Positions 3,001 to 48,330 of a stretch of 64,000 bases of DNA are shown piece after piece (the first letter of the stretch is position 1; every line of letters starts with the position of its first letter). A model generated the notes under the pieces. It ran no database searches and was not told where the DNA came from. It saw only the letters and a program-made list of their open reading frames with translations. Made by a program: the position numbers and the translations under genes. The DNA comes from an uncultured bacterium (GTDB lineage: Bacteria; Omnitrophota; Omnitrophia; Omnitrophales; Aquincolibacteriaceae): assembly GCA_964508905.1 (NCBI GenBank), contig CAZDVO010000002.1:46330-110329 (forward strand). Direction: 5' to 3'.

Positions 3001-6000
3001 AAGGAGACAACGGCCGTCCATGTGGTGGCATAAAAATCCGCCACGTATTGGGTTCCGTTGATGTAAAGATTGGTTTCGGCATCCTTGGTCCCAGAAAGCA
3101 CAAGCTGCGTCGAGTTGATGAAAGCAGGCACAGGCGAAATGATCACGGGCGCTGCCGGCGTAAATTCATAAACGATCGTGTCGCTGAAGGTCGCGATATT
3201 TCCGGCCTTATCGCGAACCTGATATTGAACTTCTTTCGTGGCATACCCCGCCGTCAGCGTGATCGCGCGGGTCGCCGCAAAAGCCTCCCAATCCGTCCAG
3301 GTCGATCCACCGTCCACCGTAAAACGGACCCCATCCACCCCACTCAACGCGTCCGCCGCCGTCAGATTCAGCGTTACGTCCCTCGTACCGGTTGAAGCCG
3401 CGCCATTGTTGATCTTTACTGAGCCTGTCGGCACCGCCCGATCACGGATGGTGGCCACAATGGCCGCCGCGCTCGTTTTCCCTGCGCTCGTTTTCACGGT
3501 CACCGAGAATGTTTTTGATCCATCGGCTGACAGAGAAACGGTCGCCGTCCATGAAGTCGCGTTAAAATCCGCCGTGGTTTTAGTCCCATTGATATAGAGA
3601 TAGGTCTGAGCTTCCTTGGTTCCCGAGAGAACCAGCTGGGTCGCATTCGTATAAGCCGGAACGGTCGATGTCACGACCGGCGTCGCGGGAAGAAATTCAT
3701 AAACGATCGTATCTTTCAATGTGACGAAATTGCCCACCCGGTCGCGGATCTGAAACTGAACCTCTTTCGTCCCATACCCGGCCGCCAACGTGATCGCGCG
3801 GGTTGGGGCAAAAGCTTCCCAATTCGTCCACGTCTTCCCCCCATCCACCGAAAAACGCATGGCATCCACACCCGAGGTCGTATCGGCGGCCGTCAAATTC
3901 AGCGTCACAGCCGCCGTCCCGGTGGATGAGGCTCCGTTATTGATCTTGATCGAACCGGTCGGAGCCGTGGTGTCACGACGAAGAACAAGGTTCTGGGTCG
4001 CGCAGGCAACGCCAAGAATGCTCTTGGCCAGCAACGTAACCGTATTATTCCCTTCCGAAGAGAGTGTCACTGTCGCCGTCCAGGTCAACGAGGTATCCGC
4101 CGGAGCCACAAGCTGGCCATTCACGTAAACCGAACTATACGCGGCTTTGGTCCCAGAAATCGTCACGGTCTTCTGGCCAAACACCGTCGGCGTCGAAGGA
4201 TCCAGCACCGGGGCAGCCGGCGCCGTGGCCCCGGTAAGCGCCCGGGTAGCCCCTGAACGATAAACTTCGAAAGCGCTGCTCTGGAGGCGGGTCAGCGCCG
4301 GGACATCATCCAGGGTGATCGCGACCGAAGGAAGACTGATCCAAATGTCCGGGGCCCCACTCCACGTAAAATAAACACGCGTCCGCAAAGGTACGGACAT
4401 GATTTGCTCCTGAGCCAGGACCTTCGCTACGGCCGAACGCTGCGCCAATTCGTTGTACCGAGCATCCATCACCGCCATCATCCAACTTTGAGAGGCCCAG
4501 GTCGTCGAGGGGTTAGAATCCTTAAAATGAGGCACCGCCAGGAGGGCCGCGAAGGCCAGAACGCTCTGGGGGTCCATTCCCTCCAGGATCGTAACGTTGT
4601 TCTTGAAGTCCGTGCTCGTAAATCCCGTCACCGGCGGCGCTTTTTTCGCGTACGTAGTCAACTGGGAATCCGAGATCGTGGGTGCGATCACCTGCGTCGT
4701 CGCAAAAAGCATCTTGGCCAGGGCCTGATCACGCGCGCTCAGCCCCGCCAGCAACGCGGTCCTTTGCGATGAAGTATAAGTAGAAATTTTCCATTGAAAA
4801 TTTTCGCGCGCCTGGAACACGGCATCGTCATAGCGCGTGGACAAGGCGGGATTCGCCAGTAAAGCCGCAAGCTCCGCGGAAAATTCGGCGCAGAGCGCGG
4901 ACATGTCATTACTCACGATCGTGTCTTTATAAGTGCCCGTATTCCCAAGGCGGTCGCGGACCTGACAGACGACCTCATTGGTTCCGATCTTCAAAGGAAG
5001 GGTCAACGGTTTTGTCGCGGCGAAAGCTTCCCACTCCGTCCATGTATTTCCCCCATCCATCGAAAAGCGCATGGAATCAACACCCGCCCCCGCGTCGGTG
5101 ACGGCCACATTCAGGATCACGTTCGCCGAACTCGTCGATGAAGCACCATTATTGATCTTAACCGATCCGGTGGGCGCTTTGGTGTCGCGGATGACCCGGA
5201 TCGTTTGGGTAGCCGTTGAAACCCCCAGAGCGCTTTTGGCGAGAAGCGCAATGGAGTTAGAGCCTTCGGAACTCAGGGAAACATTCGCCGTCCAGGTCGT
5301 CGAGGCATCCGCGGCGGCAACCAGTTTTCCCTTCACATAAACCGCGCTGTAGGCTTCTTTAGTTCCGCTCAAGGTGATCGTTGATTGGTTGGTCACAAGC
5401 AAAACGGAAGGGTCTAGTTGCGGAAGCGCGGGGGCAGCCGCATCCGTCCCATTCAGGCGAAGATAGAAAGTCCCGCTGGCATAACTGGCTGTGGTATTTC
5501 CCGGCTCTACATAAAAATCAATCGCACGGATCCTGGAAAGATCCACGCTCGACTGGATCTGACTGAGATTCATCACCCAATAACGCTGCGTGGAACTCGC
5601 CACTTGAGTTAACTGAAAACCGGCGGTATTGCCCTCGACATCTTCAAAGCGGACGTTCACCGTATGGGCACCCCCGGTAAGTCCGACCGTTAGGTTGCCA
5701 AGCCCCGAGAGGTTGCCGGTCTCCTGACCCGCCGTGGAGTAATCATTAAAATCCATGGTGATCCCCGACTTCGTCCCCGCCGTTTTGACATTGTATTTGA
5801 CCGCGAACTTTCCGGACGAAAAGCTGATCGCCGTGGTACTGCTGGAACCATCCATCACATGCGGAAGAGGTGTCCCCGGCAAGGTTGAAACATTCGATGT
5901 CGTAAGGCCAGACGTGTAAGAGATCGCGACAAGAGGCGCCGCCACAGCCGCCGCAACGTAAGCTTTTTCGGGAAGCCTGGGATCCGTTGCCGCCGGGGAA

Positions 6001-6080
6001 TAAGCGACCTCCGCGCGAACGACCGGAACCGGCATCAAACAAAGCGATAAAGCTACGACCACGGAAACGGCTGATTTCAT
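1..6080 (-). CDS. Secreted giant surface protein, 3' end beyond window (>2026 aa): signal peptide, clan GH-A TIM-barrel glycosidase-like domain, beta-sandwich, then tandem Ig/Fn3-like repeats
   Basis: Start and signal peptide: ATG is the reverse complement of cat at 6078-6080, preceded by RBS GGAGG (rc of cctcc 6088-6092), translating MKSAVSVVVALSLCLMPVPVVRAEVAYSPAATDPRLPEK. Reading frame: I translated the minus strand by hand through 5400 and spot-checked at 2160-2460 and 1-120, all in frame with 6080 and with no stop codons. Absence from the ORF track: consistent with a missing stop codon beyond position 1. Domain evidence: the region around 2160-2460 gives KWYKTDFALMAQMGINTIRV ... GIKVVVRVDFPVGG ... 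NAYKHHPAVLMWSVGSLWDLNRYG, the clan GH-A beta-3/beta-4 pattern (compare LacZ RDRNHPSVIIWSLGNE). Repeat evidence: the plus-strand mini-ORFs containing PLLIDTDPAGATVSR-like strings (38-1059, 2728-5340) are antisense shadows of ~95-aa repeats, e.g. DTIVYDVIPTTPVITSPVP. Confidence 0.75.
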   Translation of the reverse strand, partial: MKSAVSVVVALSLCLMPVPVVRAEVAYSPAATDPRLPEKAYVAAAVAAPLVAISYTSGLTTSNVSTLPGTPLPHVMDGSSSTTAISFSSGKFAVKYNVKTAGTKSGITMDFNDYSTAGQETGNLSGLGNLTVGLTGGAHTVNVRFEDVEGNTAGFQLTQVASSTQRYWVMNLSQIQSSVDLSRIRAIDFYVEPGNTTASYASGTFYLRLNGTDAAAPALPQLDPSVLLVTNQSTITLSGTKEAYSAVYVKGKLVAAADASTTWTANVSLSSEGSNSIALLAKSALGVSTATQTIRVIRDTKAPTGSVKINNGASSTSSANVILNVAVTDAGAGVDSMRFSMDGGNTWTEWEAFAATKPLTLPLKIGTNEVVCQVRDRLGNTGTYKDTIVSNDMSALCAEFSAELAALLANPALSTRYDDAVFQARENFQWKISTYTSSQRTALLAGLSARDQALAKMLFATTQVIAPTISDSQLTTYAKKAPPVTGFTSTDFKNNVTILEGMDPQSVLAFAALLAVPHFKDSNPSTTWASQSWMMAVMDARYNELAQRSAVAKVLAQEQIMSVPLRTRVYFTWSGAPDIWISLPSVAITLDDVPALTRLQSSAFEVYRSGATRALTGATAPAAPVLDPSTPTVFGQKTVTISGTKAAYSSVYVNGQLVAPADTSLTWTATVTLSSEGNNTVTLLAKSILGVACATQNLVLRRDTTAPTGSIKINNGASSTGTAAVTLNLTAADTTSGVDAMRFSVDGGKTWTNWEAFAPTRAITLAAGYGTKEVQFQIRDRVGNFVTLKDTIVYEFLPATPVVTSTVPAYTNATQLVLSGTKEAQTYLYINGTKTTADFNATSWTATVSLSADGSKTFSVTVKTSAGKTSAAAIVATIRDRAVPTGSVKINNGAASTGTRDVTLNLTAADALSGVDGVRFTVDGGSTWTDWEAFAATRAITLTAGYATKEVQYQVRDKAGNIATFSDTIVYEFTPAAPVIISPVPAFINSTQLVLSGTKDAETNLYINGTQYVADFYATTWTAVVSLPSDGSKTFSITAKMATGKESPAATVQTIRDTVLPTGSIKINNGAAMADARVVTLNLTASDALSGVDKVRFSVDLGETWTDWEVFSATRSITLPGADGEQEVRYQVSDKAGNIATYIDTIVLNNPVPAEASIVRVLDGDRRLFVQERLEDGSLGTEGAYISQGVNWAPASQSPLDQLAEYVKWYKTDFALMAQMGINTIRVNQDFGTGADAIKILDELWRQGIKVVVRVDFPVGGTQADLSNVSAVVNAYKHHPAVLMWSVGSLWDLNRYGNKFSTIEDAAAFTEQAAQLIKSLDSFHPVTTEIGDPHTLGSHVLSAEAFPYLMKPYCTNNWYCTSVSTEDMVNTLVSSIDVWGITPSRGNTFQDALDQWQSITDKPAYIAQFGVGTTELAYVDEANKSQVNGEMWDEVYFELSAERTNGTLVGAFAYAWNNNTGGAGVGLVDIDRNPSLAYTALQSRFKDPVNGVQMNAHPVITVTSQGDSSVEIDGKVMFNRGGGGAGARGINVFVFDTSTGIRISDYRSFDTYAGDVWHTRLIDYLNNLANGTLVLFSVEDEGGLRNSGAALQTKALLSSAAWGSTEINNVVYQGGWAMAAIKGQGKLAEGVSAQQVPVSITLQPSLVLDINAGLREAVFPSTPVVTSPVPQFTNQTTFVLSGTKDAGTSILINGKLVVSLDNETTWTATVTLGAEGDNTLNVTSLNALGKSSATLPLSIKRDTVAPAGSVSINNGDATTGSTTVTLALTGSDATSGVDTMRFSVDGGATWTSWEAFAPTETVTLTAGYGTKTVQYQLKDKAANVATYSDTITYDVIPTTPVVTSTVPVYTNATTVVISGTKEANTSILINGVEKVALNSSTTWSVTVSLSEGTNTFSIKSRNSSSVESGSVSVSPVRDTVAPAGSVSINNGDAFTGSLSVNLALTGSDATAGLDAMSFSVDGGVNWSSWESFATTKSLTLTSGYGTKTVQYRIRDKAMNIATFSDTIVYDVIPTTPVITSPVPEFT
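1500..2600 (-). other. Clan GH-A (GH2/GH5/GH42-like) TIM-barrel domain inside the secreted protein; acid/base Glu apparently replaced (VGNE -> VGSL)
   Basis: Hand translation gives MAQMGINTIRV (beta-1 region), AAFTEQAAQLIKSLDSFHPVTTEIGDP, and HHPAVLMWSVGSLWDLN where GH-A enzymes carry NE(P). Family assignment is from motif memory only. Confidence 0.45.
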
Positions 6081-6202: not shown

Positions 6203-7888
6203 CTATATATTATAACGATTTGTGATTGGCATGCGGCGGCCGAACCAGGCCTTTTCAGTGACACGAAGAATGGGCGGCGTCTGGCGGCGCTTGTATTCAT
6301 TATGGTCGACTTTCCGCATAACATCCTCCACTAATGGGGTCAGACACAATTTCCCTAAAATTGTGTCTGACCCCTTTTTGAGACGGCGGAAGATCTCATC
6401 ACACCCCAGATTCTTTTCGATATACAAACGAAGGATCGCATCCAGGATCTCGTACGGCGGGAGCGAATCCTGATCTTTCTGATTCGGACGAAGTTCCGCC
6501 GAAGGCGCTTTGATCAACGTGGCTTCCGGGATCACCACGCCGAGCGAATTCCGATAACGCGCGAGGCGGTAAACATCCGTCTTGTAAACATCGCCGATCA
6601 CGGCAAGGCCACCCGCCATATCCCCATAGAGCGTGCAATACCCCATCGCAAGCTCGGATTTATTCCCGGTCGTCAGCACCAGCCGGCCCTCGTCATTAGA
6701 GAGATACATCAGTTCGAGACCGCGCAATCTCGCCTGAAGATTTTCCATCGCCAAACTCGGCCCACGATCCACGGGCCATGCCCCGCGCAGCTCGCTGTTC
6801 AAGAATGTTCCGTACATCTTCGTGATAGGATGCACTTCAAATTCGATTCCAAGATGCTTCGCCAAAAGCTCCGCATCCTTCCAACTCCCCTCCGAAGAAT
6901 ACGGCCCGGGCATCGTAACGCCCTTCACCGCATCCTTCCCCAATGCATCGCCGGCAATCGTGGCCACCAAGGCGGAATCAATGCCCCCGCTCAATCCGAT
7001 CAGGGCTTTCTTGAACCCGTTCTTCCCGAAATAATCCCGGACGCCGAGGACAAGCGCACGATAAATTTCTTCAACCGTTTTCAACCGCGCAGGTTGAAAG
7101 GGTTTTCCACCGACAAGAAAGAGGCCTTCTTCGAACGCGGGAGCCTGGAAGGTCACACGGCCTTTCTCGTTCATCAGAAGACTTCGCCCGTCGAAGATCA
7201 GATCATCCTGCCCGCCCACTTGATTCACATACAGGATCGGAAAACCGTAGCGGCGGGTATGCCCGGCGAGAAGTTTTTCCCGAGCGGCCGCCACCCCGGC
7301 ATAATAAGGCGATGCGGAAAGATTGAGGACCAGGTCCGCTTTTTTCCGGGCGATCGCCGCGAGAGGCTTCACTTCGTATCGGTCATCCCAAATATCTTCG
7401 CAGATGGTCAGACCGATCTTGATCCCTCTGAAAGGAACGACCAGCGTCTCGGCGCCGGGCTCAAAAAAGATCTCTTCCAGGAAAACGTCGTAGGTGGGAA
7501 GCAACTGCTTGTGATAGACCGCGCGCACCTTACCGTTTTCAATCCACGCCGCGGCGTTATAGGAGCATGATGCCGGGTCCAGCTTTCGAGAAGAGGGCCC
7601 TGTCCCCTTGTCAATAAAACCCAGAACCGCGGCGATCTTTTTGCCACGCGTCGCCGCCGCGATACGTTTGAGCTGACGCAGGCCGTCGGCCACGAACTGT
7701 TTTTTATTCGCGAGATCCCACACAGGATAACCGCAAAGCGCCGCTTCGGGGAAAACGATCAGGTCCGCGCCCTGGGCTTCCGCGTCGGCGATCCAGCGGA
7801 GGATCTTCGTGGCGTTCGCCGCATAGTCCCCGACCGTCGGGTTCATCTGCGCGAGGGCGATCTTCAGAGGTGTCTTCAGGGGCTTCAT
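6203..7888 (-). CDS. nadE: Glutamine-dependent NAD(+) synthetase (C-N hydrolase domain plus NAD synthetase domain)
   Basis: 561 aa. N-terminal nitrilase-type motif LIVFPEAALCGYP. C-terminal PP-loop SGGIDSALVATIAGDALG. Length and architecture match bacterial NadE. Stop is TAG at 6203-6205. Confidence 0.9.
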   Translation of the reverse strand: MKPLKTPLKIALAQMNPTVGDYAANATKILRWIADAEAQGADLIVFPEAALCGYPVWDLANKKQFVADGLRQLKRIAAATRGKKIAAVLGFIDKGTGPSSRKLDPASCSYNAAAWIENGKVRAVYHKQLLPTYDVFLEEIFFEPGAETLVVPFRGIKIGLTICEDIWDDRYEVKPLAAIARKKADLVLNLSASPYYAGVAAAREKLLAGHTRRYGFPILYVNQVGGQDDLIFDGRSLLMNEKGRVTFQAPAFEEGLFLVGGKPFQPARLKTVEEIYRALVLGVRDYFGKNGFKKALIGLSGGIDSALVATIAGDALGKDAVKGVTMPGPYSSEGSWKDAELLAKHLGIEFEVHPITKMYGTFLNSELRGAWPVDRGPSLAMENLQARLRGLELMYLSNDEGRLVLTTGNKSELAMGYCTLYGDMAGGLAVIGDVYKTDVYRLARYRNSLGVVIPEATLIKAPSAELRPNQKDQDSLPPYEILDAILRLYIEKNLGCDEIFRRLKKGSDTILGKLCLTPLVEDVMRKVDHNEYKRRQTPPILRVTEKAWFGRRMPITNRYNI

Positions 7889-8023: not shown

Positions 8024-11000
8024 CTATGCGGAAGCGGCGACACGAGACTGGGTGGCCACAAAATTCGCGAGCTCGGCCATGAGAGACTCCAACCCGCCCA
8101 GCTTTTCCACGGACACGAAGTGATACCCCATCGACCAGATCGCGTCGTTGAGCAATTTATCAGCCGCCAACAGCGTGGACGCTGTTTGCTTGAGCGGATT
8201 CCGGGCCCCCACCACGCTCAAGAGATGCCGACGAGAACCGATCTTCCGAGTCACGACAGAGTCTTCACGATCCGTGATAAGAGCCACGGATTGCCCCAGC
8301 GGCGCCGCACTGTTATAGAAACTCGCAAAGGCTCCGACAAACTCGTTCTCATTGGCAAATGCACGAACTGCGAAATTCTGCGGCAAAGCACCCATCTGGC
8401 TAAGAGCCGCAAGTTCTTTCTCGAACGTAGCGACCTCAGAAGCTTCCGCGATCAATGCGAGCACCACCGCGGCCTTCGGGTTATATCGCGCAAAGGTTAC
8501 CAAAGGCAGCACGCTCGCCGCATCCGGAATCCCCTGCCGCTGGTCAACCACCATCCGTTCCGTTGAAGCTGTCGCGGATGAGCTCATGATCTTGTTAAAC
8601 ACCGGCCACTTCTGCGCAAAAGCGGAAGGAACCGTCGAAACCTGCTGAAAGTGACGGGTACCTGCAAAAAGCTCCGGGGCAATCTCGGAAGCATATGCCG
8701 GAGTGCTCGACAGGAGCGGCGAAACCGTATTCGCCGCCACCCGGATCGCCGTCCCGATCTTTGCCCCTAAGCTGCTCGCATCCACCGCAAGGGCCAACGG
8801 AGTATCAGTCATCTCATAAGTTCGCGCTTCGGAGCGAGATAGAACCTCATGGGCCCGCGCATCAGATTTCAAGGGAGTAACAACCGCTTCAGGCGCTATA
8901 GACTGAACAACACCCGTTGACGTGACGGCTTTCAGTCTGGCAATGGCCACGACAAGCGCTTCATGGGCAGGATTGGGGCGACGTTCCACGCCTGTATTTG
9001 CAGACCCCACAGAATAAAGCCTTCCCGTATCTCCAGGCCCACCCGTTTCAAATTGCTCTTCGGAAACACCGTAGACAAGCTCGGCAGGCATGGTCTTCAG
9101 GATTTCTCCCAAGGAAGCGACCATCGTGGGGTTATTGACCGATTGAAACATATCAACTAAGGCGAGAATAGCACCTTGTGCAGGATCTATAACTTCATAA
9201 GGTCTTGTATCCCCCGTGCGATACTTCAGCTCTTCAACGAGAACGGGAATGCCGCTAAGATCCTGTAGCTTAAAACGCGCCTGCGCAGCAGCAATGCGCA
9301 CATCCAGATATTTATGTTTCAATTCCTTGCCGAGTTCTCGCAAAGCGGCGAGGTCATTCAGCCGAGTAATAGCCGCCCAACGAATATGAGGATTTTCGTC
9401 GCCCAAGATATCGATCAATATTGGAATAGCCCGCGGATCGTTGAGCACCCCAAGCGTATTGATAGCCTCCACCCGGCGGTTATTCTTGCGTTCCTCAAAA
9501 ATCCCCCAAAGCCAAATACGGAAACTCAGAATCCCCCCAAGAACCGTTCCCAGGACAAACCCCGCGACCACGGATGTCATCGATCCCATTAAATATCCCA
9601 CCAGGCCACCCATAACGATACTCCCGAGAAATGAGATCATTGAACCGTGGTCACACCACTTGGGCTGAAGATCCGATATGGCTTTCTGGAATTGTTTTTC
9701 TTGCTCGGGCGTCAGGCGGGCTTGCCCTGAGTTTGCCGAACGGGATTCTGAGCGGGACTTTACCTGGGGTTCAAGAATGCTTAACGCTTTCAGAACAGCA
9801 TCCCGAACCAAGAGATCAGGATCCCCGGCAACCGCTTTTAACGCAGGGATCGCCTGAGATTCTTTGATCCCACCAAGAATCTTAGCCGCAGCCATTCGAC
9901 GATCGGCGACCTTCCCCGGAAGCAAAACCCCACCCTTTCGAGGTTGGAGATCCATGATCAAATGCTGAATCAACGCTTGTCTCAAAACACGCACCTCTTC
10001 CAGGGCTCTAGATCCGAGGATTGGTTCAACATCTTTATCCAACCTGCCGGACTGCCAAAGGATCTCTTGCAAGCCCCGCGCGGGATCTACGGGAATTGGC
10101 GCCGCATAATCATAAACGGTCGTTGCGATACCAGCCTGAGACAACGCCCCCCGAAACGCCAACGAGCCGCGAATCTGGAGCAATGGCGCATGCATAAAAA
10201 TGGCCGAACGACCTTGATATCCCGAAGCCAGTTCTCTTTTAAGAATATCGACAGAAAAAACGCCGTTGTCCGTCATTCCTTGGGACGCCTTCTCCACCCA
10301 TATCGCTTCAGCGGGTACTCCGGCTCGAACCAGAGCATCTTTCATCACTAAAGCCTCCGCACGAACGGATTCCCCCGTCTGTCCATTCGTCCCACGATCG
10401 GGATCTTCAGGAAGCGGTTTGATATGTTTGCCAAAGCGCCCGGATACGATAACCCTGGACATTTTGTGAGCAAAAAAGATCTTAGCCGCCTCCTGAGCCA
10501 CGGCTTCACTGTCGGGACTTCCGAAAATCACCAAAAGATCAGCTTCTCGAGGCAGTGCATCCCGCTTAGCCATCAAAGCGACGATCTGCTGCGCTTCTTT
10601 TTCTCGAATGGATTGAAGAATCGCGCCGGCGGATTCTTCAGCAGAACGGTTCGTGTTATCGATCTCAACGGCATCCGCGGCTTTCCTGAAAGGAGCCACG
10701 GGGCGGATACTATCGATACGGTCACGTTCCAAAAGATCCCGCTTCACCTGCTCGAGCGTGATCTGTTTTCCGCCCCCCTCAAAATCACGCATTCTCCGCT
10801 TCGCACGAACATCGGGATCCGCCGTCAGAAAAAACTTATACGGTGTATCAGGAAAAACATCCGCCCCCACATTCCGGCCTTCAATCACCATATTGTCGGC
10901 TTCCCCAAGCTCACGTCCGGTTTGAAAAACCCAACGGAGCACGGCAGAATGGCGTGAAACAAGTGCAACGGCATTACCCACCTCGGGACTCCGGATACTT

Positions 11001-14000
11001 TCCGTCAAAGGGACCCCATCACGAAAGACCACTGTTTTCCCTTCGGCATATTTCACATCGATCCGTGTGCGAGCCAGCATGCTCTCGATCCCCGCAGCAT
11101 CATCCAGATCCAGCTTTTCATTCAAGGCCTTCTCAGCCACAGCTCGATTCAAAACACCAAGCTCAATGTGCTTATAGCCAAGCGCTTGGGCAAGCTTACG
11201 CGCCACAGTTCCCTTCCCCGTCGCCGAAGCCCCATCCATGGCAATCACCGTGGTTTTAAGCGGGTTCAGCTTAAGATCCAACTCCCGCGACTCAGAGCGA
11301 CCGACCATTTGACTGGCCGCCCTGACCTGGAGTTCGATCTCATTCCCCTGCCTCATGACAGGAATGCCGAAGAAATCCTTCTCCACACCGTCGGGCAAAC
11401 CGTCCAGTTCCCTTTTCACATCAGCTGTGCGCATGTCGTTCCGCCATCCCTCATTCATCATAGCCCGCAGCACCAAGGCACCGGCATCACGAATGGCTGC
11501 TTTTCTTAGTTCAGGCGCCTCTGATCTTACAAGGTCCGTTCGGATAGCAATGTCTCCGCTCCCAGAAATTTGAGATAACTGGGCAAGAAACTTCATAAAC
11601 TTCACGTACTGACGATAACCCCTTCCATGTTCGATCAAATAATTACAAATCCAGACGGTCCCGAGAATGATATCCAGATCATCTCGAAGGCTTTTGCGTA
11701 ACTGAGCCTCCTCGGCTCCGAACAATTGGCTAATAGTAGCTTTCAAAACCTTTATTTGAGTATGGTCTAAAAGAGGCGCTTGAAGATGCGGACGGGCCGC
11801 CATTTCAAGCCGGTATTCGTCATAGCGCTCCGTCAGCCCCTTCAACCCTTTTGGAGCCAGCCATGTCGTCATGGTTTCCAATTGATGAAGAGGCAACTTG
11901 TTATAACGATCATCGAGCGATGCCGCATCGGCCACAACATGCAGGACCAAGTACGGCATGAGCGTTCCGGAAGAAAGGTACCCTTTGTATCCCTTCGGAA
12001 CCTCGAGAAATTTTTTGGCGCGCAATTCTCCAAGATAAGTAGGGCCGGCCTCCATATGTTTCAATACGATCGCGGCTATCATTTCCTTTTCCTCTGCGGC
12101 CATCGGCAGAGGTGCTAGAAATTTACGAGCAATATCAGAACCTCTTTTTTCATGCCCCGTTCCATTCAGATCCTCAGAATATCCCGTATCATGGAATCGA
12201 ATCGCCAAACGAAGCGCCTGCTGTTCCTCAAGCGATAATTTGTCAAAGAAATCCTTCAACGCTTTTAAGCTCTTCCGATACCGCGCTTTGGTTGCATCCT
12301 TTGTTCCTTCAGGCATCCGTCCAAGGAAATAAGCGAAGTCCCCACGGGTAAGCGCTCTAAAATAGTTCTCCACCTGCACCATGTGTTGGGCGCGCCCCTC
12401 ATCGTCCTTGAGAATTTTCTGGTAGGCCGGGATGTCTTCGATGGCAATGATCTGCGATCCCGGATCCGCCTGCGCGGGCATCAGGCGCGATTGAGCTGAG
12501 TTTGTCGAGCGAGATTCGGAGCGACCACGCCCATTCGGTTTCGACATATGCTGAAGACTGATAAGAGCCAAAAGAACTCCGACCCCAACGCAAGCGTATG
12601 TCGCTGTGGGATTAGCATCAAAAAAAGCATGCAGGTCTCTGATCCAACCAATCTCATTTGCACTCACATGAGCAAGCAATGGGAGGGGCATAAAAGAGGG
12701 ATATCTCTCATTCCAATCTGCTTCGTCGTAAGCATGGTCCCTATCGCCACCTCTATACGCCGGTCCAGATGACCTACCCACCTCTCGCTCCAAGCGATCC
12801 GCTTCTTCCCGCTCAGCGCGTTCCATCTCTTCCCTCGCTATTCTTTTTTCATATTCCGCAAAGTCCTTCAGCGCCACTTCCGAACGAGGATCGCCCATTT
12901 TTCTTAATGCTTCCGCCGCAGCTCTTCCGGCATACTTGTACAACTCGTCCATCAGAGCCGACACCGCCCGAAGGTCCCCGATCACTCCCAACTGAGCAGC
13001 AACAGCCTTATTAAAATTGCTACCAAACCTCCGAATTCCAAGAGCTTCAATCAGCATGGGAACGGCCACAGCTCCTCGGACTCCCATCGCTTTCACTAAA
13101 TCTATAGCCAACGCATCGTTACGAGTAGTCTTTATAGCTTCAAGCAAGGCCTCCAAACTCGCCTCATCTGTCATCTGACTAAGCAAATGAACGGCGAGAG
13201 AGCGATTGCCGAGTCCGCCATGCAAAACCTCAGACAGCACGGGAATTGCTCTGGGGTCCTTCAGCTCACCCAAAGCAATCGCCACGAAATAACGAAAATC
13301 CCATCGTTGATCTTTTAACGTAGCATCAAGCGCAGAGGCAAAATGTTCTTTGAGTTCCCTCAGAGATTTTTTTGCTAAAGATTTGCGATCGCGTCCATAA
13401 TTATTAAACCTACCATCCCACCACTTGGGCTGGAGATCACTCAACACCTTCCGGAATTGTTTTTCCTGCTCGAGCGTCAGGCGGGCTTGCCCTGAGTCTG
13501 TCGAACGGGACTCAGAACGCAAACTCTTCCTCGACTTGATTGCTTCCAAAGATTCAGCCGCTTGTTTCGAGATCTCCTGGCTTCGATAAGTCACAGCATC
13601 ATTCAACAATTGTTCCACCGCGGGGGAATCGAATTCGGCTAAAGCGCTAACAATCAAAGCCTTTGTTCCCGCGGAGATCGGTTCGCGAGCAAGACCCGTT
13701 TTGTAAGCGTCATCGTAAAAGGCTCCAATCAAGGCTCTGAATGATTTCAAACTGCCGGCTTTAGCATACGCGGCCAGTTGTTCCACCGCCCGAGCACAAA
13801 CAGAAGGATCTTCGTCCCTCATAAGAGCCCGCAAACTCCGCAGAGCCTCAGCACCCACTTCAAAACGAGTCGGCTGGGGTCGCCTTAAAGAATTTACGGC
13901 ATAAAGAAAACACGTGATCATGCCGGCGAGGGCAAAGATCAACACAGCTGTTTGATGATCCTTTATGAAGAGAGAGAGAGGCTCGTTCCCGGCAACAGCA

Positions 14001-16518
14001 AGAAGCGAAAGAGGAATGAAGGAATTATGGCTCTCCCATTCGGCTCTATCGTAAGCATAGTCCCTGTCGCCGCCTCGATACGCCCCGGGGAAGGACCTGA
14101 GCCCCCTCGCCGATTGACGACGAGCGCCGAGAACCACAGGAAGAACGAAAATACCCACAAACGCGCTAATACCTAGCACGCGACCACCATATACGGCGAA
14201 AAAATAGTGCATCTTACTGATTCTATACAATGCCTTTGCCGCAGCCTCGGAATCATAGCCGAAACCACGCCGAAATATTGCTCTAAGCCTGGGGATCGCG
14301 GATGAATCATTAATTTCACTACTTTCGCCACGATCCACAAGACATTCGAAAGCTCTGTAAAACATTGGCCACTCTTGGCTATAAAATGCTGATTTTAAAG
14401 CGATAGTTACGGAGCGATCAGGGATCTCACGAAGTGCCTCCTGAGCATAAAAAAAAGATTTCGACCCCGACAAGGCGTTAATCAATTCAGGCACAGCCGC
14501 AGGGTCCCTTACTGCCCCCAGGGCATTTTGGGCAGAATACCTTACCGAAACAGGCTCGCTCTCATCATTACAAATTCTCACCAACGCGGGAATCCGCGAA
14601 ATTTCATCTATTGCTTTTCCACGCAACGGGATCATCCCCATCACCGCCGCGAGCATTAACTTTGCCGCGATAACACTACGCCTTCTAGGATTGATTTCTT
14701 CCTTATCCGTTCGCCGCGCTTCAGCACGAGCCACAGAGGACGTCGATGCAGGCGTCGGCGAACCAAAAGTAGAGGTAGTTACAGACTTAGAAAGGGACGG
14801 ACGGAGTGAGGCCTTTTCAGAATGGATCAGGCCGGAGATAAGGCCGCGAATCTCGGAACGCCAGGCTCGGGTTTGATCCTGGCCCGTGACGACAATACGA
14901 TCGCTAATCGGATTCATACCCAGGAGCGGAACGGCCTGGGAGGTCGCAAAGTCCCGCGACCCCATCATGGCCTTGAGATAAATATCATGGTCGCGTTTCG
15001 AAACTTCATTGATGCGCGGGGTGATCTGGAGATAGGAACAATGCTTGGACACCGCAAGCTTCTTGAGGCCGTCGGTGTGGAAACCGCCTGTCACGATCAC
15101 GGCGCGATCCTTCTTTTCCAGGTTCATGCGTTTGAGAGCATTCGCAAACATCTTGTTTTCACGAGCTACAGCCACAGCATAAAATTGTATTGCCTGCTCG
15201 TAAATCGGCTTAACCTTCTCAACTTCCGAGGAGAGACTGCGTCCCACCGGGGAAGTTCCTGAGGCGCATAGCTCTTCGTACTCAGCGCGAGTTAATTCGA
15301 GTGAAAATAATCGGCGTAGCAGATAAAGCTCCCGCGACTTCGAAAGATATTCTTTTTCATCCGCGGTCCTAGCCAAAACCGTCAGGAGCTTCTCTTTCAA
15401 ACGAACCGTCTCCTCCTGCAGGCCCTTCCCCTCCATCTCCTGCATCAAAATGATGTATTGAGCATACCGCATCCAATTTGGCCACGGGGCCATGGAAAAG
15501 TCTTTGGAGAGTTTATTGAAAACAAGATCAAAGGCGCGGCGCATCATGGAATAACCATCCGTCGTCCGGCTGACAGTCTTCAGCAGGTCTGTTTCGGGGG
15601 CTTGCAGGAGGGTTTTGAAGGCATCGAGAATCTCTTTGGAAACCTTGCGCCGGCCAAGCTCTGATAAAAACGCATCGGCTTCGCGGCGGGCTTTTTCACG
15701 GTCGATCTTGGAGCCGATGGCCTGTAAACGGAAATAGCGTATCAGGAAAGGATATGAGTCCTGATAAAAGGCGTCTGAAAGGTCGGTCTTAAGATGCTTG
15801 CGGCTTCCTTCACCCAAAGCCTTGATCCAGCTTTCAAAGGAAACGGTCCCCACCCCCAACGCTTCCTCTTGTCGAACGAGATTCAGGAGGTCTTTATTCA
15901 GCTTCGATGAAAAACGCCGGTCGAGCGCGGCCCTCAACGAACCCAGGAATTTCTCCGCGGTCTTTTCTTTTTTCACAACGCTGATAAACGCATCACGATC
16001 CTTCTTATAGGCATCAAGGTCTTCAATCCCCCACCCTTCGGTTTTGTCCGTCGACTCGATCAAAAAGGACTCAGGCCCGGTAAGATAGCCTTCTTGCATA
16101 AGCTTGTCCGTGACCTTCTTATTGAAATCGGGGTGTTTCGGGAAAAGGCGAAAGAGCTCGGGCTGAAGCTTATTCCCCGCGCCTTCAAGGAGGAGCAACT
16201 TCACGGACGAGTTTTTTTCGATATAGCCAAGAAGCTTTTCGATATTCTTCTCGGCCTGATAATTCCCGTGCGCGGACTGGATATGAATGAATGTGGGGGC
16301 CAGAGGATCCCCCATCATGGTATCGGTCACCTGCCCGAGCTCCGTCGGGATTGCAAGGGAGGCGGCGTTGAGCGCGGACACCTCGGCACGTCCGGCCAAG
16401 GATTGCGGCTGGAGCGTGGACACACTGATCCCTTGGGCAGGAGCGCCCCAGCTGATCTGCGTCGAGACGAAACAAAAAATTGTCACAAGGCTGATCGCTT
16501 TAAGCGTTTTGCTGAAGG
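8024..16518 (-). CDS. Giant multidomain membrane protein (~2,830 aa): N-terminal module paralogous to the 10,119-aa neighbour, HEAT repeats, TM helices, HD-domain-like, cytidylate-kinase-like and DUF218/YdcF-like domains
   Basis: The ORF track gives 8024..16588 with a non-ATG start. The likely true start is the ATG at 16518, with RBS AAAGGAG 10 nt upstream (rc of 16519-16540), giving MRSFSKTLKAISLVTIFCFVSTQISWGAPAQG, a signal/anchor sequence. Domain motifs seen: VIAMDGASATGKGTVARKLAQALGYKHIELGVLNRAV (Cmk P-loop); LAIRFHDTGY...GHEKRGSDIARKFL...LKHMEAG...HVVADAASLDD (HD-like); LLVIFGSPDSEAV...SGRFG...GESVRAEALVMKDALVRAGVPAEAIWVEKASQGMTDNG (DUF218); multiple PRAIPxL HEAT-like units; hydrophobic helices. 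Confidence 0.85.
9650..9760 (-). repeat. Intragenic ~105-bp DNA repeat, copy A (encodes ...QARLTPEQEKQFQKAISDLQPKWCDH...)
   Basis: ccacttgggctgaagatccgatatggctttctggaattgtttttcttgctcgggcgtcaggcgggcttgccctgagtttgccgaacgggattctgagcgggact is ~85% identical to 13430-13535. A weaker third copy lies at 12481-12545. Confidence 0.7.
10050..10560 (-). other. DUF218 (YdcF/ElyC/SanA-like) domain
   Basis: LLVIFGSPDSEAVAQEAAKIFFAHKMSRVIVSGRFG...GESVRAEALVMKDALVRAGVPAEAIWVEKASQGMTDNGVFSVDILKR fits the DUF218 pattern (vvLGg..., iivSGG..., sEAevM..yL...GVP...I..E..S.nT.eNa). Confidence 0.5.
10640..11270 (-). other. Cytidylate kinase (Cmk)-like P-loop NMP kinase domain embedded in giant protein
   Basis: TTVIAMDGASATGKGTVARKLAQALGYKHIELGVLNRAVA...RIDVKYAEGKTVVFRDG...ALVSRHSAVLRWV...NMVIEGRNVGADVFPDTPYKFFLTADPDVRAKRR matches the Cmk consensus (IAIDGPAGSGKGTVAK...YLDSGAMYRA...). 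P-loop DNA at ~11190-11250. Confidence 0.6.
11800..12300 (-). other. HD-domain-like (metal-dependent phosphohydrolase) segment
   Basis: H...HD...H...D spacing: RFHDTGY, GHEKRGSDIARKF, LKHMEAG, HVVADAASLDD. The DNA for FHDTG is at ~12185-12200. Confidence 0.4.
13420..13535 (-). repeat. Intragenic ~105-bp DNA repeat, copy B (encodes SRSESRSTDSGQARLTLEQEKQFRKVLSDLQPKWWDG)
   Basis: Direct DNA-level similarity to 9650-9760, read off the sequence. A second repeat family lies at 12690-12790 and 14025-14110 (tcgtaagcatRgtccctRtcgccRcctcKatacgcc), encoding AYRGGDRD(H/Y)AYD.A.W followed by a TM helix. Confidence 0.7.
14900..16518 (-). other. Conserved N-terminal ~540-aa module shared with the 10,119-aa protein (possible TraB/GumN-like fold)
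   Basis: TFIHIQSAHGNYQAEKNIEKLLGYI...VKLLLLEGAGNKLQPELF...KVTDKLMQEGYLTGPESFLI and DRAVIVTGGFHTDGLKKLAVSKHCSYLQITPRI align with IILHVQDAHINEEAQRNIANILRYF...LGLVSLEGASGELNTDLF...VADYFLREGRLTGPEYLAV and LSAIVTGGFHTPGIEKYLQEKGLSYIVVAPRI of the larger protein. Confidence 0.6.
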
Positions 16519-16588
16519 ATCTCATATCCGTTTTTCTCCTTTGATCGTCCATGTTTTTAAAACTAAAACACCGGGATTGCCGTCCCAA

Positions 16589-16870: not shown

Positions 16871-19800
16871 TTATGCCGCGATGGCGATGGAACGGGCAGC
16901 CTCGATAGCGGCCTCCACGACTTGGAGCGCCGTTAACGTCCGGGCAATACCCGCGATCTCACGATCCGTGACCACCACGATCTCCAGACCCAAGGAACCA
17001 GCCAGCAATTCGCCATAAGTCTTGGCATCCAGTTGCGAGGCGCCACTGATCCTCGTCGCAGTCGCGCGCGAGAGGTTACGGCCAGCCTGCTTCAAGCCGG
17101 CATCAAAGGCTTCTTCGATCGACGCGATAACGACCGCGCACTTGGTCATATCAAAGCCATATTGCGTCAAGAACGCCTTGGCGGAGGCCTCGTCAGCTTC
17201 ATTCTTCACCGCGATCGAGAGGTAGATATTGTCAGTCGATTTAAGCGATTTCGCGAAGGACTCAAGGCCCGCCTGATTGAATCCGTCCTGGAAGACATAT
17301 TTCGGAGCCTCAGCGCCCACGATCACGTCGGCATCAAGGCCCAAAGCCGCTTGCATCTTGGGTTCCGCCGCAAAATTCGAGATCACCTGCGTGAATTCGT
17401 TCTCGATCCCAAGAGCCTTCACGTGCTCCACCGTACGAGCGAGATCAAAACGCATCGCCTGCGAGGACGCAATACCCGCAACCATTCTCTGCGCCACAGG
17501 GCTCAACGCCGGCTTTTGCTGCCCAGCCATCTCCGGTGCGGGAGTTCCGAGCTTCTTTAATTCGTCCTCAATAGCCGCTTGGCGCGCCGCTTCAGCAGTC
17601 ACTGCAGGCCGCAACTCCGAGCGTTTCGTCTCAGTCTTCGCGGGAGCTTCAGTCTCGGTAGCAACCGGCAAAGGCGTGTAATCCGAGAGACGCTCCAACT
17701 CCGCCAAAAGCGCGGAAGCCTTGGGATGAATGACAAGCATCTTCGCGTTGGCCTCACGGATAGCTTTGGTCAGAGTTTCCCCTTCCGCCGGGACTTGCGC
17801 CAATTCACGGCCGGCCGACGCGGGATTCTTAACCGCACGAGCAAGCATGTCTCCAAGCCCCTTGATCTCATTGCCACGGTTCACATGAGGGTAGCCGGAA
17901 ATATCTTCAGGCAACCCCGCGAGATAGATCGCGTCAAGCATCAACTGCTCATCCGCCATTTTTTCAACATTCGGTTCATAAACCCTCAGCGCGGCGACCT
18001 GGAAATTTTCCGTTGAAGAACCCGTCTGCCACCAGAACGCCTGCGCCGTCGCCTTCACACGGGCGGTCAGCATGGGGCTTGTGACCATATAGATCCTCGG
18101 ATTTTCAACCGACGCGGGGATCTTCTCTCGGAGGATCTCCGCGGAATTCCGAAGATTGGCCTCCGTGTTCCGCGCGCGAGCTTCTTTCGTGATCATGCCG
18201 GCTGGAACACCTTCCGCCGTTAAAATATAAGCCATAATGTCCGCCTCGGTCTGCCACAGGGCGACCACATCCGAGGTTTCATTAAGCCCGTAATGCTCCA
18301 TAGCCGCCTTCCTAAGCGGAAGATAACCACGCCCTCGGCCACCCGTCACCACGATCGGCAACTGGGTCTTAAGAGCTTTCCACGTCGCGGCAAATCCTGT
18401 AAAAGTCCGCAGATCGGGGTTACCAAGGACTAAAAATCCATCGGCGGGCTTCGTTTGGAGATCATCCCCCTTCGAAAGATCATCCACCAGCTGCTGCATC
18501 TTCGGCACCATCACAGAACGAACGGCCGCGATCTCACGCGACTCAGAACGCCGCGTTCCGATCGCGGAAAGAATCGTTTGGGGAGCATTATCCTGCAATT
18601 CCGACCAACCGAGCGGAAACGTCTGGATCAGAGAAAGGGTTTCTTCTCCGGGCTTTTGCGTCGGTTTGAGATCGGCTCGCATGAGCTCCACCGAATTCAC
18701 AGCAACGGTACCGAATTCCGTATCCCGATTGGCGCGAACCTCGTCCATGAGCACCTTAAATTTTTCGCCGGTCACCGAATGCTGGAGCCGAAACAGTTTC
18801 GCATGGATAATGTGGCCGGATGATTTATCTTCGGCGTGGGGATTATCCGTAAAAGCTTGGTGCAACCCGGAACGAAGGCCGCCAAGATTTGACGGTTCAT
18901 CGACATAGCCTTGCGCGGTCACCGTACCATCTTTGGCGATCGTCAACCCTTTGTAGGTAACGCGGAACGGCATTATCCTGCCCGTTACCCCGCGGATCAC
19001 ATCCTGAATTTCGGCAGATTGATACGGCGCCATATCGATCACGCCGTTATACGTTGTGACAAAGGCAAAGATCGTGCTGTGAAGCTCACCCGTCCGGACG
19101 ACATCGGCATCAGTCAACTGAGCCGTTTGAATGATTCGTTCTGTCATCTTCCACAGATTATTCTGAACCGCGCCCTGCGGCACACGCATCAAGACAGGAA
19201 CTGTCGTCCCGTATCGCTGAGCGCCCTTTTCATCAAAATAATTTTTATGCGCCATGATCGCCGCCTCACTGATCGAACCCTGTGCTTCCGTTTCGGTAAA
19301 CATCCGGTCGTAATACCCCCTCAGCACCTTGGGATCCAACTCTGCCACCGTTTCCGCCAACCGCATCTCCGAGCGGGCGTTAAGCTGCACGTCTTTCCCC
19401 GGCGTCCTTGATTCAGAACGAGGTTGAACCATTTTGGGTTCACTAGTCTCGCTTTTTTTCACGTTCCCCTCGCCTGTCGAACCAATTCCATGCAGAGGCA
19501 CCGATGATTCCTTACCCGGCGCAACTGATTCTGGCACAACACGCGCTATCAGCATCAAAATGCCCGCGACTCCCGAAGCAATCGCGAAACCGATCCAGCC
19601 TCCAATCGAAAACCCGATCCCGCCAATCGCGGCGATTCTCGTAATCATCCTGATATATTTAGCCGATTGTTTTGAGCCAATAACAAGCCCCGCGACGATC
19701 ACAAAACCCACAATCGCCGCCACAACACTCCATCCAAGCACATGCCCCACAGCAGTAACAGGCACGAGAACCAAGACAGGCAAAGCAATCGAACCCAGAA

Positions 19801-47230: not shown

Positions 47231-47620
47231 AGTCGATAAAGTTATTCCAAGTACTACAAATTCGCCTATCTGATCGGGTATAAAACTTAGTTTAAAGCCT
47301 TATAAACCTCAATAGAAATATACCCGATTACCCCATGAAGGTCAAGAAAACCTAAAAAATTTTTAATGACGTAACTTATTGTCATACTACAACTTGTATC
47401 GCGACAACAAAATTATTTGAATTTAAGCAAACTCATTAGAACAATTCATAGCAATAAAATCAAAAAAAATTACGTCTGTATTTGCATATAAAATTTTATC
47501 TGGTTAAGAAGTTTTGATGCGTTAATAAAAAGTTTTTTAAAATAAATGCCTTTTAACTATTGTTTTGATGCCCCTACATAGAGGTGACGATGAGAAGAAA
47601 TGAGATCAAAAAAAAAGAGC
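47231..47620. promoter_or_regulatory. Strongly AT-rich island immediately upstream of the giant gene (putative promoter / nucleoid-protein binding region)
   Basis: Composition drops from ~60% GC to roughly 25-30% GC over ~390 bp (e.g. aaaattatttgaatttaagcaaactcattagaacaattcatagcaataaaatcaaaaaaaattacg), with A- and T-tracts including a 9-A run at 47616-47624. No convincing ORF. Confidence 0.45.
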
Positions 47621-47867
47621 ACTCCCCTATTCGGAGAATCAACACCACGGGAGAAATATTTCATGACAGAAGGACAGGTGATGCCCATGAATATCTCGAG
47701 GATAAAAAAAAGAGAGCGGACGAATGATAAAGCCGGCGCCACACGAAACATCAAAATCCCGACGGAACGGATCAGACACCTACATCGAAAAGAGATATCA
47801 CGACCGCTAAAACCGCCGGGATATTTTGGACCTACCCTGACTTTTATTTATTTCTAAATGGTCGTCA

Positions 47868-47918
47868 GGACTGTCCCAATACATATCAATTTCCACGAAG
47901 TTGAAATTAGGGCTGTCC
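47868..47918. repeat. REP-like palindromic element (family GGACNRGYCCAAT - ~22-25 nt - ATTGGRCNRGYCC), copy 1
   Basis: ggactgtcccaatacatatcaatttccacgaagttgaaattagggctgtcc. It is homologous along its length to 58888-58956 (gtcccaattcttatcaatttcagagaatctgaaattggggcc) and has internal inverted repeats (caatttc / gaaatt). Confidence 0.55.
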
Positions 47919-48053
47919 AAACTACCGTTATGGAACAGAAATGAAAAGTTTGGACTGGCCCATTTAACCTTAGATTTTTCGAAAGAGAAATGGACCCGCA
48001 CTTGCCTCCGATTCATTTTCAGAACGGCGACAAGTGCTGGCCCAGTTTCCAAT

Positions 48054-48091
48054 AAAAAAAGCCCTTCGGAATTACCCGAAGGGCTTTTTTA
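48054..48091. terminator. Bidirectional rho-independent terminator hairpin
   Basis: aaaaaaa-gcccttcgg-aattac-ccgaagggc-tttttt: 9-bp GC-rich stem, 6-nt loop, with an A-run 5' and a T-run 3', so functional in either orientation. Located downstream of the tRNA/hydrolase transcription unit and upstream of the giant-gene AT-rich island. Confidence 0.7.
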
Positions 48092-48099
48092 ATGATAAC

Positions 48100-48117
48100 T
48101 GGACCTGAGGAGAGTCG
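48100..48117 (-). repeat. 18-bp perfect direct repeat of the tRNA-Ala 3' end (tggacctgaggagagtcg), possible att-site remnant
   Basis: Identical 18-mer at 48100-48117 and at 48258-48275 (the 3' acceptor/T-arm of the tRNA), same orientation, 140 bp apart. Confidence 0.6.
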
Positions 48118-48257
48118 GCGCCCTCCATTCGCTTCGCTCATTACGGGTCGGCCACCCGCCCTTAAAACATGACCTTCGTCATATTTTAAAGCAGGGCTCC
48201 CTTCGACTCTCCCCCAATCAAAAAAATATCCCGGAGGCAAAAGCTCCCGGGATATTT

Positions 48258-48330
48258 TGGACCTGAGGAGAGTCGAACTCCTGACCTCTGCAATGCGAAT
48301 GCAGCGCTCTACCAGCTGAGCTACAGGCCC
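48258..48330 (-). tRNA. tRNA-Ala (anticodon CGC)
   Basis: rc = GGGCCTGTAGCTCAGCTGGTAGAGCGCTGCATTCGCATTGCAGAGGTCAGGAGTTCGACTCTCCTCAGGTCCA, 73 nt. Cloverleaf folds by hand: 7-bp acceptor with G3:U70 (Ala identity), D-arm GCTC/GAGC, anticodon stem CTGCA/TGCAG with loop TTCGCAT (anticodon CGC), T-arm AGGAG-TTCGACT-CTCCT, discriminator A. CCA not encoded. Confidence 0.9.

Follow-up and report, generated by a model that had tools for sequence, protein, structure and literature searches.

The stretch analyzed here (the window: 64 kb of contig CAZDVO010000002.1, assembly GCA_964508905.1, from an uncultured bacterium of the Omnitrophota) carries two long genes, termed A and B, which lie head to tail on the minus strand and whose proteins share a short peptide motif, RSESR. 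The open reading frame (ORF) of gene A probably has its true start at the ATG at 16525, which gives a protein of 2,833 aa. A protein of 2,833 aa on record (P0030) has an N-domain 100% identical to that of gene A, and no contig carrying it was found among the contigs on record. The A protein is laid out as a signal or anchor segment with the N-domain, HEAT/transmembrane (TM) modules, an HD-like module, a module combining (d)CMP kinase (Cmk), DUF218 and HEAT, a further TM and HEAT portion, and a C-domain. The Cmk module scores 171 bits against TIGR00017 (equivalog cut-off 135.55) and spans model positions 3–216 of 217. Gene B has the N- and C-domain frame seen in A around a very long centre with many TM segments and few motif sites; its C-terminal part holds 2H phosphoesterase and DUF218 modules, and B aa 1–9000 returned zero Pfam matches at E ≤ 0.01.

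A preliminary description of the window had reported RSESR in both giant proteins and had raised the possibility of a protease or kinase recognition site. The motif is present four times in A (0.0075 expected from shuffles) and three times in B (0.004 expected), including the three B sites quoted there, at aa 721, 9271, and 9561. When the pattern RSE[SA]R was scanned in all six frames of the window, nine of ten matches fell in frame in A or B. The consensus of the protein family described below gives six genuine sites in A and six in B, which we refer to as delimiters (Table 1). One further match, A577 RSEIR (14846–14860, minus strand), was rejected as a chance match and not a delimiter, because it falls within an N-domain helix and is not conserved in orthologs, which read ARDVR. 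The seven window copies of RSESR do not match one another at synonymous sites, so their sharing did not come about by DNA copying and points to selection at the protein level. Flanking similarity is common to only 3 of 13 window sites.

Table 1 Delimiters, domains, and repeats of genes A and B (window positions in nt; aa numbering of the encoded protein).
Feature	Position	Strand	Remarks
Gene A	8024–16588	-	2,854-aa ORF; 8.6 kb
N-domain of A	14729–16450	-	invariant HxQxAH...EGA...TGGFH
A621 RAEAR	14714–14728	-	N-domain end; kept in 3/4 aligned orthologs; disordered tail of AlphaFold2 (AF2) model
R2 copy 1	14036–14084	-	protein-level match aa 831–869
A1024 RSESR	13505–13519	-	
R1 copy 1	13416–13519	-	aa 1024–1058; 82.7% identical to 9651–9754
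R2 copy 2	12713–12761	-	protein-level match aa 1272–1312: AYRGGDRDHAYDEADW, then hydrophobic segment
A1356 RSESR	12509–12523	-	directly after TM segment
R1 partial copy 2	12471–12523	-	53 nt, 81%, E 3e-9; aa 1356–1372: RSESRSTNSAQSRLMPA
A1764 RSESR	11285–11299	-	12 aa ahead of Cmk domain
(d)CMP kinase module of A, complete	10604–11251	-	aa 1780–1995; Pfam E 6.5e-50
DUF218 domain of A	10145–10537	-	aa 2018–2148; Cmk in same module, no delimiter between
A2279 RSESR	9740–9754	-	
R1 copy 3	9651–9754	-	aa 2279–2313; RSESR + SANSGQARLTPEQEKQFQKAISDLQPKW, HEAT-module start
A2585 RSEAR	8822–8836	-	C-domain start; RSEVR in P0012
C-domain of A	8027–8821	-	Rossmann-like alpha/beta fold; terminal helix ends ...VAASA
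Gene B	16871–47230	-	10,119-aa ORF; 30.4 kb
N-domain of B	45431–47110	-	24% identical to N-domain of A
B721 RSESR	45056–45070	-	end of B N-domain
B7217 RSEAR	25568–25582	-	
B9271 RSESR and B9286 RSEMR	19361–19420	-	past last TM cluster, ahead of 2H phosphoesterase module
2H phosphoesterase (AKAP7/LigT-like) module of B	18671–19186	-	
B9561 RSESR	18536–18550	-	between 2H and DUF218 modules
DUF218 module of B	18020–18379	-	
B9870 RSELR	17609–17623	-	start of B C-domain
C-domain of B	16874–17608	-	ends ...IAIAA

Both proteins begin with a hydrophobic segment followed by a domain with the pattern HxQxAH ... EGA ... TGGFH (the N-domain), and both end in a C-domain of ~250–300 aa that has a delimiter ahead of it and [SA]A as its last residues. 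A profile of the N-domain run against one genome per GTDB species returned more than 454 relatives, all of them from Omnitrophota, where a genome often holds several. Searched exhaustively with a profile, 1.84 billion cluster representatives gave 8,974 (clusters at 50% identity) at E ≤ 1e-3, always with the domain at the N-terminus. These searches define a very large family (~9,000 clusters at 50% identity) that Pfam and NCBIfam do not include; neither the N- nor the C-domain has a model in Pfam-A or NCBIfam. The family layout is a signal or anchor segment with the conserved N-domain, variable cargo modules, and a conserved C-domain ending in SA or AA. The short relative P0011 is a bare frame of N-domain, RSESR, and C-domain; P0012, the closest relative of A, is without the central modules of A; and in P0017 two RSEVR sites enclose a PAS-histidine kinase-receiver cargo. 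All three follow the order N-domain, site, cargo, site, C-domain with wholly different cargo.

The ends of the family proteins have features of their own. Complete members nearly all finish in ...[A/S]x[S/A]A-COOH, with SA or AA in 102 of 144 representatives, and the tail looks like a non-polar C-terminal tag of the AxA or ssrA-like kind. In some members the last helix itself holds a delimiter-like RSEAR or RAEMR, 10–14 aa from the end.

The abundance of the motif was determined in 80 related loci (L001–L080) and replicated in an independent set of 144 metagenome representatives totalling 407,196 aa. Its consensus is R-[S>A>P]-E-[M,V,A,T,I,L,S]-R, with an aliphatic or small residue at position 4. 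Over-representation in long family proteins is ~30–70-fold, and ordinary proteins are at chance level. Across the 80 loci, ORFs of 100–600 aa hold 0.03 motifs per 1000 aa (0.05 expected), those of 600–1000 aa hold 0.41, those of 1000–2000 aa hold 1.29, and those of at least 2000 aa hold 2.03, which is ~38-fold above expectation. RSE.R was found 342 times where 4.8 were expected; the replication set gave 820 sites against 28.6 expected. The variants KSE.R, RSE.K, RSD.R, RTE.R, and RGE.R are at or below chance, meaning that K does not stand in for R, D for E, or T or G for S, and the motif flanks show only small and polar residues. Such strictness is the profile expected of a site that a binding pocket recognizes. 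Chance and low complexity were ruled out by the shuffles, the six-frame scan, and the ORF length-class control, and a positive-inside or topology signal was ruled out since Lys never replaces Arg. The window supplies a negative control in its third large gene, whose 2,026-aa secreted repeat protein contains zero delimiter motifs, so length alone is not the cause.

Placement of the motif follows the module boundaries. The first site lies a median of 141 aa past TGGFH (interquartile range (IQR) 117–205), at the N-domain end, and the last a median of 302 aa ahead of the C-terminus (IQR 238–353), at the C-domain start. Site-to-site spacing has a median of 231 aa (IQR 114–437), the size of a protein or domain. 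Within 3,411 aa of Pfam envelopes in A, B, and five relatives there are 0 sites, where 12.1 were expected from the own site density of each protein (Poisson P 5.6e-6). Complete enzymes are approached closely: a site stands 12 aa ahead of Cmk, hexokinase is flanked by sites 7 aa before and 7 aa after it, and TIM, ADK, DUF218, PGI, PALP, and 2H domains have sites 1–59 aa ahead of them. In the AF2 models the predicted local distance difference test score (pLDDT) is <50 at the RAEAR of A after the N-domain and at the residues following RSEAR before the C-domain. TM or signal-like hydrophobic segments are threefold enriched 10–40 residues after sites and depleted before them, as expected if modules carry their own targeting signal.

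Embedded triosephosphate-isomerase domains start at Pfam profile position 43–46. This was seen in L008 (aa ~2499–2721, directly past a delimiter) and in L013 (aa 727–983, ~32 aa past one), and in both the N-terminal beta1/beta2 part with the catalytic Asn/Lys region was not found in place.

The most informative result is that the wording of the delimiter follows the genome. In the window, RSESR accounts for 7 of 13 matches, whereas few sites elsewhere have Ser at position 4 (20 of 342). The CAYQTU genome uses RPE[SA]R at 17 of 17 sites across several loci, the DAOPYQ genome uses RAE[K/R/L]R at 16 of 19, and RSDxR or KSExR is used by single representatives. The JACROU and JAKQXH genomes have essentially no RSExR and instead carry [A/G/S]xSLG 21 and 10 times (0.8 and 0.7 expected), with the first copy directly past the N-domain and similar spacing; SLG is at chance level in all other genomes. 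In the replication set the SLG type makes up 8 of 144 representatives, among them P0129 with 18 SLG and 0 RSExR in 7,376 aa. Paralogs with only 24–31% N-domain identity share a dialect (A and B; L009 and L061; L017 and L035), whereas orthologs from other genomes with 53–79% N-domain identity use different ones. The dialect match between loci is 0.176 within a genome and 0.095 between genomes, and in 2,000 permutations of the labels the observed value was never reached. Because the dialect tracks the genome and not the gene lineage, the reader of the motif should be encoded elsewhere in the genome. A single reader per genome whose specificity drifts, with all sites following, would be the simplest explanation. 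The preliminary description had missed that RSESR is not peculiar to A and B; it is the local dialect of a phylum-wide module delimiter. Its guess of a recognition site is its most valuable part.

The motif exists, is strict and specific, sits at module boundaries with module-sized spacing, and covaries within genomes. A strict pentapeptide in disordered linkers that brackets enzymes and co-evolves genome-wide is the signature of polyprotein protease junctions. From these sequence patterns we estimate a probability of roughly one half that the delimiters are processing sites of bacterial polyproteins, read in trans; the protease nature of the reader and the occurrence of cleavage are the steps we infer. 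In the proposed mechanism, the delimiter would be displayed in an extended, disordered linker, one face of the chain carrying R, E, and R and the other the small and aliphatic residues. A dedicated factor encoded elsewhere in the genome would recognize it, most probably an Arg-directed endopeptidase. Cutting of the long translation product would then yield its modules, namely HEAT scaffolds anchored in the membrane and entire enzymes, Cmk among them, in what would be a chromosomal polyprotein strategy.

A natural gene split lends support to the autonomy of the parts. The A-ortholog of GCA_040767405.1 has an in-frame TAG two codons past the first delimiter (...SRAELRQD, stop, SATKESKLTPTQEKQF...). 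The same TAG was seen in three independent assemblies (L081, L082, and L083; positions 11948–11950), and a related genome has Gln there. The split leaves a 649-aa N-domain gene and a 2,291-aa gene (3,707 aa in the L081 call, which runs off the locus end) that encodes Cmk, guanylate kinase, CofD, NTP_transf_3, HEAT, and DUF218. Synteny with the window is kept at this locus, with a giant gene upstream and nadE downstream.

Several observations weigh against polyprotein processing. Neither A nor B yielded a protease domain. B has only 6 sites over its 10,119 aa and lacks any from aa 721 to 7217, and some domain junctions, such as Cmk-DUF218, have no site. Among ~70 loci only one gene is cleanly split at a site, the other pairs of adjacent ORFs being accounted for by frameshifts, runs of N, or plain gene adjacency. 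A periplasmic N-domain would put the first site and the sites around cytoplasmic enzymes on opposite sides of the membrane, and a crude hydropathy topology assigned no membrane side to the sites. The likeness of the N-domain to Tiki/ChaN/Ere hydrolases is below significance (best Pfam E 0.0023; Foldseek E ≥ 1), and the C-domain is a generic Rossmann-like fold (fold-search matches E ≥ 0.008). A codon bias within the motif, described below, hints at something that the protease model leaves unexplained.

Strictness, linker position, and genome-wide covariation would fit any trans-acting reader equally. The delimiter could instead be an uncleaved docking or handling signal, bound by a chaperone, insertase, secretion factor, or modifying enzyme that organizes module folding, insertion, or assembly while the protein stays intact. 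The enrichment of TM segments directly past sites agrees with this, and published work favours intact membrane-anchored giants forming a coat. Complete soluble enzymes such as Cmk, hexokinase, ADK, and PGI would however gain little from tethering, the in-frame TAG shows that separated parts can work, and a swap to the chemically unrelated [A/G]xSLG is typical of protease-site turnover. We consider an uncleaved signal unlikely on balance.

A second alternative keeps cleavage and moves the reader into the protein itself. Here the N-domain, as a divergent hydrolase of the Tiki/TraB/ChaN/erythromycin-esterase type, would cut the delimiters in cis, as in viral polyproteins that carry their own protease. 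The N-domain does begin every family member and has the invariant residues H56, Q58, H61, E89, and H458. Like the Tiki/TraB-PrgY/ChaN/erythromycin-esterase superfamily, it has the order H..H, E, G-x-H, apparently on an alpha/beta core; it differs from that superfamily in a ~300-aa helical insertion. Six of eight members match PF04187 (ChaN) weakly, the best at 15 bits against a cut-off of 27.7, and EreC (6xcq), 3b55, and ChaN (2g5g) are among the top Foldseek matches; all of these similarities are below significance, and a profile search of the PDB gave no match for the N-domain. The dialects also tell against cutting in cis, since they track the genome and not the N-domain lineage, and parallel specificity changes would be needed in every paralog. 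The N-domain also follows a signal-like segment, which possibly places it across the membrane from the cytoplasmic enzyme modules. A cis-acting N-domain therefore appears rather doubtful to us.

The preliminary description had also reported DNA repeats inside gene A, which a self-comparison of the sequence shows to exist. The strongest pair, R1 at 9651–9754 and 13416–13519, covers 104 nt at 82.7% identity (E 5.6e-26 by repeat search and blastn). The second, R2 at 12713–12761 and 14036–14084, covers 49 nt at 82% (E 3e-8), and no additional copy of R1 or R2 was found elsewhere in the window. The repeats had been given coordinates that are 10–25 nt off and had been called near-identical, which neither an 83% DNA identity nor a longest exact match of 24 nt bears out. 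At the protein level aa 1024–1058 and 2279–2313 are 80% identical, and aa 831–869 and 1272–1312 are 63% identical; protein repeats of A were detected by self-BLAST with a fragmented query, as whole-protein self-BLAST culls the off-diagonal high-scoring segment pairs. Three repeat comparisons gave Nei-Gojobori synonymous divergences (dS) of 0.54, 0.77, and 0.91, with dN/dS of 0.12–0.25. In the R1 core the dS of 0.54 stands against a proportion of synonymous differences (pS) of 0.93, which is saturated, in the adjoining HEAT sequence; this lower divergence indicates copying or conversion of a short tract at a time when the modules around it had already diverged. R1 and R2 are old duplications within the gene, or short tracts of conversion, that involve two module-start segments. 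The proposal of duplication or conversion holds in this form, and its qualifier "recent" does not agree with dS values of 0.5–0.9. The longest exact match anywhere within A and B is 24 nt, which makes both the suggested risk of assembly collapse and a role as substrate for RecA-type recombination unrealistic.

R1 comprises a delimiter and the first helix of a HEAT module, and R2 a juxtamembrane AYRGGDRD..W segment. The SGQARLTPEQEKQF module is, as the preliminary description had missed, the conserved start of a HEAT-repeat module, which also occurs in orthologs as RSEVR-LTPAQEKQFQKA..DLQPKW. R1 is not private to the source genome, as orthologs have RSEVR-LT(P/L)AQEKQFQKA..DLQPKW at the beginning of a HEAT module. 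R2 (AYRGGDRD..W) was found in the gene A protein alone among 210 family members.

At window positions 9716–9754 and 13481–13519, A reads RSESR-S(A/T)(N/D)SGQAR-LTPEQEKQF where orthologs (L001 aa 893, L016 aa 1857) read RSEVR-LTPAQEKQF. SGQAR in A occupies the ancestral RSEVR position and the dialect-conforming RSESR lies 8 aa upstream, an arrangement that may reflect site turnover during dialect change.

Alternatively, the signal could act mainly at the DNA or RNA level, as a junction for module shuffling or conversion or as an mRNA-processing or translation-pausing site, with the peptide as a by-product. R1 does document the copying of a short tract at the DNA level, and the 5' half of the motif is constrained beyond its amino acids. 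CGY codons encode its first Arg in 82% of sites (background 42%; all 13 window sites) and TCN codons its Ser in 95% (background 66–69%), and the base ahead of the motif is C-rich and A-poor. This bias is a hint of extra constraint at the nucleotide, tRNA, or decoding level. The remainder of the motif behaves differently: all six codons occur for the last Arg and both codons for Glu, in each case at background levels. Position 4 varies over seven amino acids, K, D, and T are excluded though each is one mutation away, and the window copies differ at synonymous sites. Fifteen degenerate bases are too few for homologous recombination, and the SLG dialect is unrelated in sequence to RSExR. A signal mainly at the nucleic-acid level seems improbable.

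Yet less credible is a passive linker, for example an R-E-R salt-bridge hinge that has no reader and takes on its genome-specific wording through gene conversion among linkers. Sites do lie in linkers, and the intragenic copying of one linker is documented in A. A hinge should accept K in place of R and D in place of E, and the motif accepts neither. Conversion among linkers sits poorly with flanking similarity at so few of the window sites, with the synonymous differences between copies, and with dialects common to genes that have no detectable DNA similarity. We regard this explanation as highly improbable. The kinase option, in which RSESR would be a Ser phosphorylation site of a basophilic kinase, has an Arg-flanked Ser in a disordered context to recommend it and is very unlikely indeed, because position 2 holds Ala or Pro in place of Ser at ~23% of sites (116 of 458 in the 80 loci and 191 of 820 in the 144 representatives), Thr is excluded (0 against 3.8 expected), and whole genomes use only RPExR or mostly RAExR.

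By analogy, processing at the delimiter would follow a junction-motif principle already known from viruses, MARTX toxins, and gingipain precursors. Viral polyproteins are cut at junctions such as Q/G by picornavirus 3C, dibasic sites by flavivirus NS3, and LXGG or LQ/S in coronaviruses. The delimiter resembles these as a short strict motif at junctions of independently folding units that varies between lineages and would co-evolve with its reader. It differs in being chromosomal and bacterial, with thousands of paralogous carriers and a cargo of housekeeping-type enzymes and membrane scaffolds. MARTX toxins have conserved terminal regions and exchangeable central effector modules, which are freed by an internal cysteine protease domain (CPD) at loosely defined Leu sites. 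A and B likewise have conserved ends framing variable cargo, and MARTX processing sites also lie between modules, but Pfam finds no RtxA repeats and no CPD (Peptidase_C80) in A or B, and a strict pentapeptide takes the place of the loose Leu sites. Arg-directed inter-domain processing by an Arg-specific protease is known from the Porphyromonas gingivalis polyproteins RgpA, Kgp, and HagA and, at eukaryotic prohormone sites, from convertases. These share with the delimiter Arg-containing junctions between modules of a long precursor, while R-S-E-x-R has an obligatory Glu and belongs to other domains, another taxon, and another scale.

Within the phylum, the closest known proteins are the Omnitrophota giants termed 'Archaeovorins', for which post-translational cleavage has been proposed and the cut points stated to be unknown (10.1101/2023.11.21.568195; 10.64898/2026.06.07.730766; PMC10066038). 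Whether these giants act as single molecules or as many products is an explicitly open question, and unknown motifs have been named as the main difficulty (PMC11573180). They share with A and B the phylum, long ORFs, many TM helices, HEAT scaffolds, and embedded metabolic enzymes (glycolytic enzymes and kinases). Their criterion is a gene of >90 kb (>30,000 aa; West-Roberts 2023), whereas A is 8.6 kb and B 30.4 kb, and their SecA DEAD-like or C39/S8 peptidase domains had no Pfam match at E ≤ 0.01 in A or in B aa 1–9000. The delimiter motif, its dialects, the shared N-domain, and the C-domain ending in SA or AA are not described in 10.1101/2023.11.21.568195, 10.64898/2026.06.07.730766, or PMC10066038, and PMC11573180, which deals with huge proteins in general, likewise gives no motif, N-domain, or C-domain of this kind. 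A full-text literature search with the motif strings and with Omnitrophota plus polyprotein or cleavage site returned nothing relevant.

The delimiter supplies testable candidate cut points for thousands of long Omnitrophota proteins. It allows segmentation in silico for structure prediction and annotation, and predicts which peptides proteomics should and should not detect; the dialect differences give a comparative handle on the identity of the reader enzyme. More broadly, and tentatively, many Omnitrophota proteins may be chromosomal mega-polyproteins cut at a pentapeptide by a genome-encoded endopeptidase whose specificity drifts between lineages. These would include housekeeping Cmk, Gmk, Adk, hexokinase, PGI, and TIM, and the drift series would run through RSEhR, RSESR, RPESR, RAEKR, RSDxR, KSExR, and [A/G]xSLG. 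The 'giant genes' of the phylum would then be operon-like arrays read through as a single ORF, and every mature product would be predictable from sequence via the delimiter.

Two patterns were noted by eye within the long genes, each in a region with no Pfam match at E ≤ 0.01. An HD-like pattern (..RFHDTGY.. GHEKRG..) is found in A at aa ~1440–1560 (window ~12100–12500), between A1356 and A1764. In B, aa ~1040–1620 (window ~42400–44100) contain a Walker-A GAGKT, LDEADQ, and a helicase-motif-VI-like GRVGRGG, a pattern reminiscent of the SecA/DEAD-like domains reported in Omnitrophota giants.

Two peptidase genes elsewhere in the window may be taken as leads for the delimiter reader, and nothing more. 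LepB (signal peptidase I) is encoded at 59780–60445 on the minus strand and adjoins lepA, and a fragment of an M16 gene (insulinase/processing-peptidase family) lies at 62995–63978, also on the minus strand, at the right window edge. M16 processing peptidases are Arg-directed.

Genes A and B are followed by nadE (6203–7888) and then by the third large gene (3–6080, minus strand), which runs off the left end. The latter encodes at least 2,026 aa with a signal peptide, repeated Ig-like/HYR-type units, a glycosidase-like region, and an ILEI domain. Upstream of B, positions 46001–48330 have the lowest GC content of the window (0.466 against ~0.53), and a tRNA-Ala(CGC) gene is located at 48258–48330 on the minus strand.

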